Positions 43,977 to 45,846 of a stretch of 64,000 nucleotides of DNA are shown here, one piece after another (the first letter of the stretch is position 1; each line of letters begins with the position of its first letter). Below the pieces are notes generated by a model. The model worked only from the letters and a program-made list of their open reading frames with translations. It had not been told where the DNA came from and did not search any database. The stretch covers positions 4,331-68,330 of the forward strand of contig CAMLTY010000002.1 in the NCBI GenBank assembly GCA_946486465.1. Direction: 5' to 3'. This DNA is from an uncultured Mycoplasmatota bacterium (GTDB lineage Bacteria > Bacillota_I > Bacilli_A > RF39 > UBA660). Position numbers and translations under genes: made by a program.

Positions 43977-44053
43977 AACACTTCCCCTTTTCATGTCAAT
44001 AAAAGTATACCACAAATATTAATAGTTTAATATTAAAAGAAAAAGACTTGACA

Positions 44054-44524
44054 TTATTTGCCAAGTTCTTCATGCATCATTTCTTTTATTTTATCAATAT
44101 CAGTGAAAAACAAATTAATTCCTTGTTTCTTTAAAGCTAATAATGAATTAAAATTTTGTAAAATCTCATCTTTTAAATTATCAGCAACTCTAGCAGGAGC
44201 ACCATTTATTGTATGTGGATGATCTATATATTTTTCTAATGTAGGAAAAGCATTTTGCAATAATATAACAGATTTCTTTTCGGCAATTTCTCTTATCATT
44301 ATAGAACGACAATCTCCATATTTCTTAACCTTTTTATCTATTATAGGTTGATACTTAGAAACTTTACTACTTAATGGAATAAACCATAATATATCCTTAT
44401 CTTTAATCGTAAAGTAAGTAGGTCTTGCTCGTCCATTTTCATGATTTATCATTAAACCTTTGTCATTAATCTTATCAAAAAATTCATCTTTAATATGATA
44501 AATATATCCCGTTTTAACTCTCAT
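44054..44524 (-). CDS. type III toxin-antitoxin toxin, ToxN/AbiQ superfamily (CptN-like) endoribonuclease
   Basis: 156 aa. ILWFIPLSSKVSKY resembles the ToxN YLAPLTSPKK core. GGGGGTG RBS. Lies directly downstream of the RNA repeats and terminator, the canonical type III layout. Confidence 0.75.
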   Translation of the reverse strand: MRVKTGYIYHIKDEFFDKINDKGLMINHENGRARPTYFTIKDKDILWFIPLSSKVSKYQPIIDKKVKKYGDCRSIMIREIAEKKSVILLQNAFPTLEKYIDHPHTINGAPARVADNLKDEILQNFNSLLALKKQGINLFFTDIDKIKEMMHEELGK

Positions 44525-44614
44525 TTTATAAACACCCCCAATAACAAATATAACTTGTAACTAAAATATATCAAATTATAACTTTGTTTGCAAGTACAAA
44601 AGTTCTATTTTTAG

Positions 44615-44650
44615 AAAAAAGAAAACTTTATTCAAAAGAATAAAGTTTTC
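44615..44650 (-). terminator. intrinsic terminator between antitoxin repeats and toxin
   Basis: Minus-sense GAAAACTTTATTC-TTTT-GAATAAAGTTTTC (perfect 13 bp) followed by TTTTTT. Confidence 0.75.
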
Positions 44651-44651
44651 A

Positions 44652-44757
44652 AACATTTTCGACCGAGATCATTTATAACTCGCACCACTCGGAAGCGACT
44701 AACATTTCGCGATTGGAATCATTTATAACCCGCACCATCCATAAGCGGCTAACATTT
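44652..44757 (-). ncRNA. type III antitoxin RNA repeat array (2 full ~50-nt units + partial)
   Basis: Contiguous units 44701-44750 and 44652-44700, then a partial unit. No spacers, non-coding, GC-enriched, and placed between promoter and terminator. Confidence 0.75.
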
Positions 44758-44785
44758 ACATATTACATTTCTTAAATGCAATAAT

Positions 44786-44825
44786 AATATACTATATATT
44801 GACATAAATGTCAATATATAGTATA
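44786..44825 (-). promoter_or_regulatory. TA-locus promoter embedded in a perfect 17-bp-arm palindrome
   Basis: Minus-sense TTGACA (44814-44809), 17 nt, TATATT (44791-44786). Palindrome TATACTATATATTGACA-TAAA-TGTCAATATATAGTATA spans 44788..44825. Confidence 0.55.
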
Positions 44826-44876
44826 CACTGTTATTGTATGCAATTTTCCAAATATTTATAAAGATTTTTGAGATTA

Positions 44877-45127
44877 TTATTTGCCAAGTTCTTCAAATAT
44901 CATTTCTTTAATTCTATCAATATAAGTGAAAAATAAACTAATACCTTGTTTCTTTAAAGATAATAAGTAATAAAATTGCTAGTTATTTCATCTTTTAATG
45001 TATCTATTACTTTAAGTGGTTTACCATTTGTTATATGGGGATGATTTATATATTTTTCTAATGTAGGAAAAGCATTTTGTAATAATATAACCGATTTTTT
45101 ATTAGCAACTTCTCTTGTCATTATAGA
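44877..45127 (-). pseudogene. 5'-truncated, frameshifted second copy of the type III toxin gene
   Basis: Reads SIMTREVANKKSVILLQNAFPTLEKYINHPHITNGKPLKVIDTLKDEITSNF, then shifts frame. Homology to copy 1 stops at CATTATAGAA and joins directly to the terminator. Confidence 0.7.
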
Positions 45128-45162
45128 AAAAAGAAAACCCTATTCAAAAGAATAAAGTTTTC
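45127..45162 (-). terminator. degenerate copy of the TA-internal terminator
   Basis: GAAAACCCTATTC/GAATAAAGTTTTC: same hairpin with 2 mismatches in the stem, plus an A6/T6 tract. Confidence 0.45.
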
Positions 45163-45163
45163 A

Positions 45164-45269
45164 AACATTTTCGATCGGAATAATTTGTATCCCGCACCAT
45201 CCGAGAGCGGTTAACATTTCACGATTGGAATAATTTATAACCCGCACCATCCAAGAGCGGCTAACATGT
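45164..45269 (-). ncRNA. second antitoxin RNA repeat array (2 units + partial), now without a functional toxin
   Basis: Units 45213-45262 and 45164-45212 are homologous to those of locus 1. Confidence 0.6.
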
Positions 45270-45297
45270 ACATATCACATTCCTTAAATGCAATAAT

Positions 45298-45326
45298 AAT
45301 ATACTATACTTTAACAAAAATGTCAA
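45298..45326 (-). promoter_or_regulatory. promoter of the second (orphan) antitoxin array
   Basis: Minus-sense TTGACA (45326-45321), 17 nt, TATATT (45303-45298). The palindrome arm is degenerate. Confidence 0.4.
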
Positions 45327-45408
45327 TAAGTATACATTTATATTATATTCGTAGGTTTAAGAAATATAACTGTTTTTATAGTTAAAATAATAACCAAAAG
45401 ACTTGATA

Positions 45409-45846
45409 TTATTTACCAAGTCCCTTTGCTTCCCTAAACAGGCTTTCATCAATTGTTATATCTTTATCACTACCAGTTACCTTACTCAAATAGTAACGGT
45501 ATTTATCATTATCTATCTTTTCATAACCATCATTATATAATTTATTTAGCACTTCATCATCTGTACCAAATTGTTTATAGGTTAAATCTGCTAAATAATA
45601 ATTACCATCATCATCTGGTACTAAAACAAATCTATGTTTATAATGAAATTCTAAATCATCAGTATCTACTATATAAGCAAGACATGACATGTCTTTTAGA
45701 TTCTCATATAAGTACCAATTATATACTAAACACATTCTCTCATACTCTAATCCATCTAAGTCACTTTTAGTATTTTCTATTGCTTTTCTAATAATAGATT
45801 CTTTATCTATATTAGCAATATTAAGCATTCTATCATATAATGACAT
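45409..45846 (-). CDS. hypothetical protein co-transcribed with ppdK
   Basis: 145 aa. The start lies 1 nt after the ppdK stop. Ordered Cys...His...Asp (ERMCLVY, YKHRFVLV, YLADLTY). Confidence 0.5.
   Translation of the reverse strand: MSLYDRMLNIANIDKESIIRKAIENTKSDLDGLEYERMCLVYNWYLYENLKDMSCLAYIVDTDDLEFHYKHRFVLVPDDDGNYYLADLTYKQFGTDDEVLNKLYNDGYEKIDNDKYRYYLSKVTGSDKDITIDESLFREAKGLGK

Follow-up and report, generated by a model that had tools for sequence, protein, structure and literature searches.

The window, a stretch of 64,000 nucleotides from contig CAMLTY010000002.1, carries two cassettes related to CptIN, a toxin-antitoxin (TA) system of type III with a repeat RNA, CptI, as the antitoxin and the CptN protein as the toxin. 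Judged from its sequence, copy 1 is an ordinary new member of the family, with the promoter, the tandem repeats, the intrinsic terminator and the CptN homologue all present. Copy 2 is most likely what was left when a cassette lost its toxin at a hot spot of cassette shuffling, namely an orphan RNA antitoxin of type III. Two classes of toxin and RNA, A and B, are distinguished below; copy 1 belongs to class A and copy 2 to class B. The structural history of copy 2, taken alone, can be given with high confidence. Its present-day activity as an antitoxin, weighed from the sequence evidence, is evenly balanced, and the complete account, in which a class-B relic cassette acts as an expressed orphan antitoxin within a recurrent cycle, has about an even chance of being correct.

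The toxin-less cassette

When copy 2 (44870-45345) was aligned to copy 1, the homology was unbroken from the promoter through the terminator, was interrupted by a single gap of 310 columns and then resumed over the last 83 toxin codons. The junction in copy 2 is the pentamer TTCTA in the gene sense (TAGAA on the plus strand), and its two equivalents in copy 1, at 44302-44306 and 44612-44616, are 310 nt apart. The first-pass annotation of this DNA had proposed a deletion at a TAGAA microhomology that removed about 73 codons, the ribosome binding site (RBS) and the leader. Such a deletion was confirmed, with a size of 310 nt rather than about 307 nt; the end-points claimed for the homology lay at the correct sites, with the coordinates of 'CATTATAGAA' off by one. 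The segment lost from copy 2 comprises the leader, the RBS and codons 1-73, including the IPLSS segment that aligns with the CptN of Eubacterium rectale (CptN_Er), a toxin whose catalytic triad has been described as Ser-Ser-Arg (Rao et al., PMC4627078).

The remnant matched toxin residues 74-156 in two reading frames, with the switch at residue 124/125, where a 1-nt deletion at about 44971-44977 produces the frameshift that had been placed after ...DEITSNF. Its tblastn match had E = 1.6e-28 and the matches to the repeats 1e-15 to 1e-16, values that exclude chance. The remnant matched the NCBIfam model NF047359 at positions 77-149 only, with 47.8 bits, under the cut-off of 90. A complete type III TA system requires an intact downstream toxin gene, which copy 2 lacks. 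In structure it is an orphan antitoxin: the promoter, including the hexamers previously described as intact (45326..45298), both repeats, both stems and the terminator are preserved, and there is no cognate toxin at the locus. No CptN other than the copy-1 toxin and the remnant was found in the 64-kb window.

The array repeats of the two copies are about 92% identical, and 26 of about 200 aligned positions distinguish the two array units, while the copy-1 toxin and the remnant are 74% identical at the protein level (61/82 residues) over the 82-residue C-terminal region. Tandem Repeats Finder detected the copy-2 array (period 50, 2.2 copies) as the sole one; the copy-1 array was missed because its two repeats are too different from each other. 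The deletion junction (45120-45147, minus strand) sets a TTGAAT from the terminator loop 16 nt 5' of a TATAAT from the toxin coding sequence, a promoter-like site before the remnant (TTGAAT-16-TATAAT, 10/12) that was created by the deletion.

The only point in favor of an assembly artefact, or of a collapsed or mis-joined repeat, is the general risk that repeats carry in metagenome assemblies. The two-cassette structure, the junction and the frameshift were identical in nine metagenome contigs that encode an identical toxin and in two further contigs of metagenome-assembled genomes. Since these at least 11 independent assemblies, made from different samples with different assemblers and including one contig of 1.5 Mb, share the same architecture, copy 2 is not an artefact. 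Moreover, the two copies differ at approximately 13-18% of positions, so they would not collapse in assembly. An artefactual origin, a doubt that the first-pass annotation had itself raised, can thus be dismissed with near certainty. The host organisms are uncultured low-GC (~25%) gut Bacilli, deposited as 'uncultured Bacilli/Tenericutes bacterium', with relatives named Candidatus Onthousia, Clostridium sp. CAG:914, CAG:302 and CAG:628.

Toxin and RNA classes

The classes were compared over 71 non-redundant intact loci. In class A, to which copy 1 belongs, the toxin loop is T-I-N-G-A-P-x-R-V-x-D-N and the RNA has G at column 39 and 'UA' in loop 1 (34/36 loci). In class B, the class of the copy-2 remnant, the toxin loop is I-I-N-G-K-P-L-K-V-I-D-T and the RNA has a residue other than G, mostly U, at column 39 and 'CU' in loop 1 (26/27 loci). 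Across this set of sequences, there is strong co-variation between the class of the RNA and that of the toxin. Residues 105-116 of the toxin, which define the class, lie around positions 104 and 106, the counterparts in the alignment of Tyr104 and Ile106 of CptN_Er; these two residues form part of interface 2 and contact the 3' end of the RNA and the base of stem 2 (PMC4627078).

The copy-2 array unit was 98.5% identical to those of loci L046 and L065, versus 87% to that of copy 1, and the remnant was 92.9% identical to the toxin genes of L041 and L046, versus 82% to that of copy 1. In related species, a class-B cassette stands alone at the same ppdK-flanked site, intact in L041, L039 and L042 and with a stop codon in L046. 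The intact class-B relatives have TTCTA at both deletion end-points, 310-312 nt apart, which agrees in full with a microhomology deletion in a class-B ancestor. Copy 2 had been described as a diverged duplicate of copy 1. It is indeed a second cptIN cassette, but its sequence assigns it to the other allele class, B, nearer to single-copy intact loci elsewhere, and it is not a simple in-situ duplicate of class-A copy 1. The intact two-copy ancestor that the earlier description had envisaged was not found at the ppdK-flanked site in relatives (about 110 loci).

Pseudoknot structure of the repeats

An nhmmer profile was used to gather 268 repeats (132 distinct) from 111 loci, and base pairs were counted for an H-type pseudoknot with stem 1 formed by columns 8-12 and 26-30 and stem 2 by columns 15-19 and 42-46. 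Pairing was present in 88% of the cells of the 132 distinct repeats. Double-sided changes were found in 226 cells, compared to 86.7 ± 11.8 in shuffles, and 0 of 500 shuffles reached the observed value. When the partners were slid by one to three columns, pairing fell to 24-49%. Pair 9-29 was U-A in 71 repeats, C-G in 60 and unpaired in one, pair 16-45 was C-G in 70 and U-A in 52, and pair 19-42 was A-U in 85 and G-C in 42. Each repeat RNA in both arrays is an H-type pseudoknot. The two copy-2 repeats have 9/9 and 9/9 core pairs, which bears out the earlier observation that both are complete and retain both helices, and the copy-1 repeats have 8 and 9 of 9. Nested minimum free energy folding of single repeats was uninformative (z about 0), since the repeats fold as a pseudoknot, and covariation counting was used instead. 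The published CptI RNA has a matching architecture, an H-type pseudoknot whose long loop is rich in A and whose tails enter the toxin as single strands (PMC4627078).

The first and second repeats of an array were consistently different (44657-44756 and 45169-45267), a pattern conserved across species. In class A, repeat 1 has CCGC/GCGG in stem 1 and UGGA/UCCA in stem 2, and repeat 2 has UCGC/GCGA and CGAG/CUCG, respectively. By analogy with CptIN_Er, a 2:2 heterotetramer, if formed, may hold two non-identical RNAs.

Drift of the remnant and conservation of the RNA unit

Changes in the window lineage were polarized with eight class-B relatives. Over the 3' 243 nt of the toxin gene, omega was 0.04-0.15 among intact class-B toxins and 0.31-0.50 when the remnant was compared with those toxins. 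The remnant had acquired 11 lineage-specific substitutions (nine non-synonymous and two synonymous) and the frameshift in 243 nt, versus one substitution, in the terminator stem, in the 205 nt of the promoter-array-terminator unit (Fisher P = 0.008; Poisson P = 0.001). No variation was seen among the WIN-type haplotypes in the 100 nt of repeats or in either promoter hexamer, in contrast to the promoter spacer, the leader and the terminator loop, which vary. The unit of L029 carries 11 derived changes, most of them in the promoter spacer and the upstream region, and both of its hexamers are untouched. By its substitution pattern the remnant is a drifting pseudogene, and the substitution contrast together with the invariance, which are the main evidence, suggests that the orphan unit may still be under selective constraint, although recombination with intact class-B alleles could yield a similar pattern.

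Allele states and recombination at the chromosomal site

The site was found in several states, namely single-copy class A (L035/L036), single-copy class B (L041/L039/L042) and the deletion allele alone (L027-L030). The last group has the same junction, no frameshift and an 81-aa open reading frame (ORF), with the lipase genes next and no intact toxin. In L024-L026 there is a single cassette with a stop codon in the toxin, and in L010 there are two cassettes, the first toxin of which has a stop codon. Tandem states among the approximately 110 loci were limited to L010 and L069, the latter from another species and at a site that was not compared. L035 and L036 are the closest single-copy relatives, with flanks about 96% identical. 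Their flank is of the copy-2 type as far as the -35 box, past which the sequence is of the copy-1 type, and this state looks like the product expected of recombination between the two promoters, which would remove the copy-2 array and the remnant. The copy-2 polymorphisms among the WIN-type haplotypes are patches that match other alleles. From these sequence patterns, the site is a recombination or cassette-shuffling hot spot, and the two-cassette arrangement is evidently stable in the lineage, yet losable.

Other observations were made on the architecture of the site. In L069 (2828-4333), two intact cptIN cassettes of different classes lie in tandem, a two-repeat array with a toxin 82% identical to that of the window followed by a four-repeat array with a toxin 65% identical; a two-copy state of this type could give rise to the window arrangement. 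The 145-aa ORF (ACTTGGTAAATAATATCAAGTCTTTT, 45396-45426) and the intact toxin (ACTTGGCAAATAATGTCAAGTCTTTT, 44046-44066), both on the minus strand, have almost the same last codons and terminator hairpin, and LGK forms the end of either protein. The spacer found after the copy-2 remnant in the window sits directly after the 145-aa ORF in L041 and L009. The similarity suggests earlier cassette gain and loss via the shared end module of the 145-aa ORF and the toxin. In some haplotypes (L002 2715-4099, L006 2-420 and L034), two opposite-strand genes of 371 aa and 78 aa, with no Pfam match on record, are inserted between the 145-aa ORF and the copy-2 promoter.

Recurrence of toxin-less arrays

Toxin-less CptI arrays are frequent in this bacterial group. 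One sample, anchored on the toxin, contained 77 cptIN loci with arrays from species representatives (GTDB); in 19 of them an additional array without an intact toxin lay within 3 kb. Toxin-less units located upstream (L071, L090, L093 and L104) consisted of a complete promoter, array and terminator with no remnant, about 150 nt before the promoter of the intact locus. Those located downstream were followed by a terminator and then by housekeeping genes, a murC-like gene in L082 and L086 and greA in L019/L095. By inspection of the repeat sequences, approximately 14 of 17 toxin-less arrays were of a different class from the neighboring intact array. A second, array-anchored sample was obtained by searching metagenome contigs with the repeat pattern and comprised at least 120 loci. 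The 109 classifiable arrays among the matches listed included 59 before an intact toxin, 17 with a broken toxin, two with a 5'-truncated toxin and 31 with no CptN homologue; for 28 of these 31 there was no CptN anywhere in the fetched locus. Judged by their repeats, the orphan arrays range from pristine to decaying. A nearest-neighbor comparison of orphan and toxin-linked repeats gave a mixed result, with 10 compensated changes, six one-sided pair-preserving changes and 12 broken pairs.

Toxin pseudogenes with a frameshift or stop codon behind intact arrays were common. Many CptN genes behind intact arrays (among L011-L026, L046 and L095) were interrupted, often near codons 33-75, and one pseudogene product, P0134, was listed in 134 index blocks and is therefore fixed in a common gut species. 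Solitary CptI-like units with no CptN in the fetched locus were seen in L197 (1678-2011), L213 (256-354) and L127/L148/L155/L144/L152. In L197, two solitary units of different class lie in tandem and are followed by an ATPase-like gene. In five contigs, an array and terminator directly precede a DNA-3-methyladenine glycosylase gene, and the same site in L011-L015 retains a broken toxin.

Toxin-less arrays carried by phages, as a form of counter-defence, were also looked for. The strict repeat pattern found nothing in predicted viral contigs (IMG/VR). A looser pattern returned eight loci (L111-L118), six of them with a full-length CptN homologue after the array, and this reading was set aside. 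L115 had toxin fragments only, and in L114, on a 136-kb contig, the repeat match was followed by no toxin in the approximately 1.4 kb available downstream.

Features of the locus

The two cassettes (Table 1) are preceded by ppdK and the 145-aa ORF and followed by a GDSL-lipase, GtrA and glycosyltransferase cluster for cell-wall polysaccharide. The copy-1 toxin scored 157.1 bits against NF047359 (type III toxin-antitoxin system CptIN family toxin; cut-off 90) and matched CptN of Eubacterium rectale (PDB 4RMO) with E = 1.1e-18 over residues 5-150; in this comparison residues 50-54 (IPLSS) of its N1 segment aligned with IPLSS of CptN_Er. Ahead of the copy-1 toxin gene lies a leader about 95 nt long that includes an RBS. 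No Pfam family was matched by the copy-1 toxin, the copy-2 remnant or the 145-aa ORF, PADLOC returned nothing relevant, Rfam at gathering thresholds found no family across the whole window and ARAGORN found no tRNA in it.

The copy-1 promoter lies within a near-perfect palindrome with an 18-bp stem (GTATACTATATATTGACAT TTA TGTCAATATATAGTATAT; 44787-44826, minus strand), which mirrors the -35 box and is made imperfect by a 3-nt deletion in copy 2 and in L035. The palindrome may function as an operator or may simply be prone to recombination. Two promoter-like sites, TTGATA-16-TATATT and a TG-extended TTGCAA-17-TATATT, are located between the copy-1 terminator and the toxin start (44547-44593, minus strand). 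If these sites are used as promoters, expression of the copy-1 toxin may not rely on terminator read-through alone; such matches are frequent by chance at 25% GC.

Table 1. Coordinates of the two cassettes and their parts in the window
Feature	Position	Strand	Remarks
Two cassettes in tandem	44054-45326	minus	genes read on the minus strand
Copy 1, complete CptIN type III toxin-antitoxin locus	44054-44814	minus
Copy-1 promoter, TTGACA-17-TATATT	44814..44786	minus	11/12 match; inside palindrome 44826..44787
Copy-1 CptI array, class A, two ~50-nt repeats	44756-44707 and 44706-44657	minus	nhmmer E = 1.2e-16 and 1.6e-15
Copy-1 terminator, 13-bp hairpin (44650..44621) and T-run	44612..44650	minus	-14.6 kcal/mol, z = -7.3
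Left TTCTA/TAGAA motif, end of copy-1 terminator T-run	44612-44616
Copy-1 CptN toxin gene, class A, intact	44054..44524	minus	156 aa
Right TTCTA/TAGAA motif, inside copy-1 toxin gene	44302-44306		codons 72-75
Copy 2, toxin-less cassette	44877-45326	minus
Copy-2 promoter, -35 TTGACA, 17-nt spacer, -10 TATATT	45298..45326	minus	11/12 match
Copy-2 CptI-like array, class B, two ~50-nt repeats	45267-45218 and 45218-45169	minus	nhmmer E = 1.6e-16 and 3.3e-16
Copy-2 intrinsic terminator, 13-bp hairpin (45162-45133) and T-run	45124..45162	minus	-13.9 kcal/mol, z = -6.2
Deletion junction TTCTA (gene sense; TAGAA on plus strand)	45124-45128		end of copy-2 terminator
Class-B CptN remnant, codons ~74-156	44877..45123	minus	1-nt frameshift ~44971-44977; stop 44879-44877

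Proposed function of copy 2 and alternative explanations

In the proposed account, a class-B cptIN cassette once occupied the hot spot between ppdK with the 145-aa ORF and the GDSL-lipase cluster. As the sequence shows, a deletion of 310-312 nt between the TTCTA motifs in the terminator T-run and in codons 72-75 removed the leader, the RBS and codons 1-73, and the remnant afterwards drifted, with the promoter-array-terminator unit nearly unchanged. The unit would be transcribed from its own sigma-70-type promoter, with transcription ending at its own terminator, and the two-repeat precursor would be cut in trans by the adjacent class-A CptN at the conserved boundaries (between ...GAA and AUGUU...). 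The precursor should be cleavable by the neighboring CptN because both arrays share the repeat boundaries and the single-stranded tails. The resulting H-type pseudoknot RNAs would be a toxin-less antitoxin, and their preferred partner would be a class-B CptN because RNA class and toxin class co-vary. The unit would act mainly in immunity, or anti-addiction, against class-B cptIN cassettes entering or recombining into the genome, and at most as a partial buffer of class A. The locus would represent one stage of a cycle that recurs in these gut Bacilli: once a cassette has arrived, its toxin goes first, and the RNA antitoxin persists for longer until it decays or is recombined away. A broader proposal, that toxin-less CptI arrays are a maintained repertoire of heterotypic 'immunity RNAs', can be put forward only tentatively. 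Such RNAs would be retained by selection once a cptIN cassette had been displaced or had its toxin deleted, would be matured in trans by any CptN at hand, and would guard against re-addiction or against killing by cassettes of that class brought in on mobile elements or by recombination.

Several observations weigh against the proposed account, 1) L035 and L036 lost copy 2 cleanly, so the unit is dispensable at least sometimes, 2) the L009 haplotype is missing exactly one repeat, 3) stems are broken in orphan arrays of other species, with fewer than 8/9 pairs in 6/28 distinct orphan repeats versus 0/98 toxin-linked repeats (P = 8e-5) and, in the second sample, pairing retained in 31/34 orphan versus 68/68 toxin-linked repeats, 4) the spacer, leader and terminator polymorphisms of copy 2 match other alleles, which points to recombination, and the low substitution count of the array may stem from recent recombination with intact class-B alleles in a locus that is visibly mosaic, 5) a class-B toxin was not found within the 64-kb window, 6) the class A/B association is confounded by shared ancestry and 7) the RNA classes are about 92% identical, so that the copy-2 RNA might cross-neutralize a class-A toxin. 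The first four of these speak for copy 2 as a functionless scar of cassette turnover that would in time decay or be deleted, intact because the toxin was lost recently or because recombination refreshed the array, a history that is possible but on balance doubtful. A scar fits less well with the 11 substitutions and frameshift that the remnant gathered against one in the adjacent 205-nt unit, and with the hexamers, which were untouched even in L029 despite the changed spacer and upstream region. The deletion allele also persists in lineages with flanks only 84-91% identical, and orphan arrays are found at the same genomic position across species, ahead of the murC-like gene (L082/L086) and greA (L019/L095).

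The last of the seven points bears on a role in dosage, in which the copy-2 RNA cross-neutralizes the adjacent class-A CptN, raises the antitoxin:toxin ratio and damps the activation of copy 1. The repeats agree in their stem architecture and in the single-stranded tails at their 5' and 3' ends, and the toxins, 74% identical over 82 residues, are far closer than the pairs with 35-44% identity that failed to cross-react (PMC4627078). However, changes at toxin residues 105-116 go together with changes at column 39 and loop L1 of the RNA across the 71 loci, the approximately 14/17 orphan arrays that differ in class from their neighbor would be unexpected if same-specificity dosage were the benefit, and CptI RNAs have been described as highly selective, with no cross-inhibition of non-cognate toxins (PMC4627078); such a role is improbable. 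Less credible by far is the suggestion that the truncated toxin ORF, 81 aa when unframeshifted, encodes a functional small protein, for example an RNA-binding decoy, served by the array. The ORF is unbroken in L027-L030 and P0121, and many CptN C-terminal proteins of about 80 aa are predicted in databases. Nonetheless, all WIN-type haplotypes have the frameshift, the lineage-specific changes are nine non-synonymous versus two synonymous, no RBS lies upstream and the terminator T-run abuts the ATG. A conserved truncated CptN protein of about 80 aa was also considered as a candidate in its own right and rejected, since most of the database entries represent just the downstream half of a toxin that a frameshift or stop codon has cut in two, not a 5' deletion.

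Taken together, the sequence data lean away from dosage support of the class-A neighbor and towards class-B immunity or a long-lived relic. Raising the antitoxin:toxin ratio would be the least favored of the three functions that had been proposed for copy 2.

Significance and comparison with known systems

Type III systems have usually been catalogued toxin-first, so that toxin-less RNA antitoxins go unseen; in the present survey they made up about a quarter of the arrays, among the matches listed, in one gut bacterial clade. The window is a clean, datable intermediate in which the junction is visible, the remnant is drifting and the RNA unit is preserved, and its relatives show what came before and what came after. 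Most of its value rests with the recurrence of the pattern and with a testable pair of A/B specificities. If the orphan RNAs are active, anti-addiction would extend from protein antitoxins to processed RNA antitoxins, the maturation of an antitoxin would depend on a non-cognate nuclease, and the natural class A/class B pair would be a ready system for mapping CptI-CptN specificity. Should the repertoire of immunity RNAs prove real, it would be the first orphan-antitoxin or anti-addiction system based on a type III RNA antitoxin, and chromosomal hot spots would be places of competition between type III specificity classes. Even with inert orphan RNAs, the locus records that the toxin decays before the RNA does, together with a recombination-driven turnover of cassettes at a fixed site. 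Saavedra De Bast and colleagues reportedly found in 2008 that the chromosomal ccd of Erwinia chrysanthemi protects against the ccd of the F plasmid.

The CptIN type III TA system is known from Coprococcus catus and Eubacterium rectale (Blower et al. 2012, PMC3401426; Rao et al. 2015, PMC4627078, PDB 4RMO). Copy 1 shares all of its sequence-level features, including the pseudoknot with an A-rich long loop, and copy 2 shares the RNA half. The repeats in the window are about 50 nt long, whereas those of E. rectale measure 45 nt and those of the family 40-48 nt in published work. The window arrays also differ in having two consistently different repeats, and copy 2 in having no functional toxin. 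Orphan, truncated or pseudogene loci are not mentioned in the family-defining survey (PMC3401426), in the structural study of CptIN (PMC4627078) or in the 2025 tenpIN survey (PMC12283969), nor are orphan or truncated loci in a 2016 review (PMC5086642), and full-text literature searches yielded no account of chromosomal arrays of type III RNA antitoxins that are orphaned.

For the protein-based type II and type IV TA systems, both orphan antitoxins and anti-addiction are well known (PMC7192599, PMC10790755). There too, an antitoxin persists without its cognate toxin near related TA loci, and the proposed role is the neutralization of incoming homologous toxins. The copy-2 antitoxin differs in being a repeat RNA that needs to be cut by a CptN, and so would require a heterologous toxin for its maturation; its function, unlike theirs, is deduced from the sequence. 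A further parallel, from a type III system, concerns phage phiTE, which carries pseudo-ToxI, a set of toxin-less ToxI-like repeats used for escape from ToxIN (PMC5086642). Both pseudo-ToxI and copy 2 are free-standing, toxin-less, type III antitoxin-like arrays, and the phiTE array can neutralize a toxin in trans. However, the phiTE array is a phage-borne counter-defence, whereas copy 2 is chromosomal and derives from a decayed resident cassette, the remnant of which has been retained.

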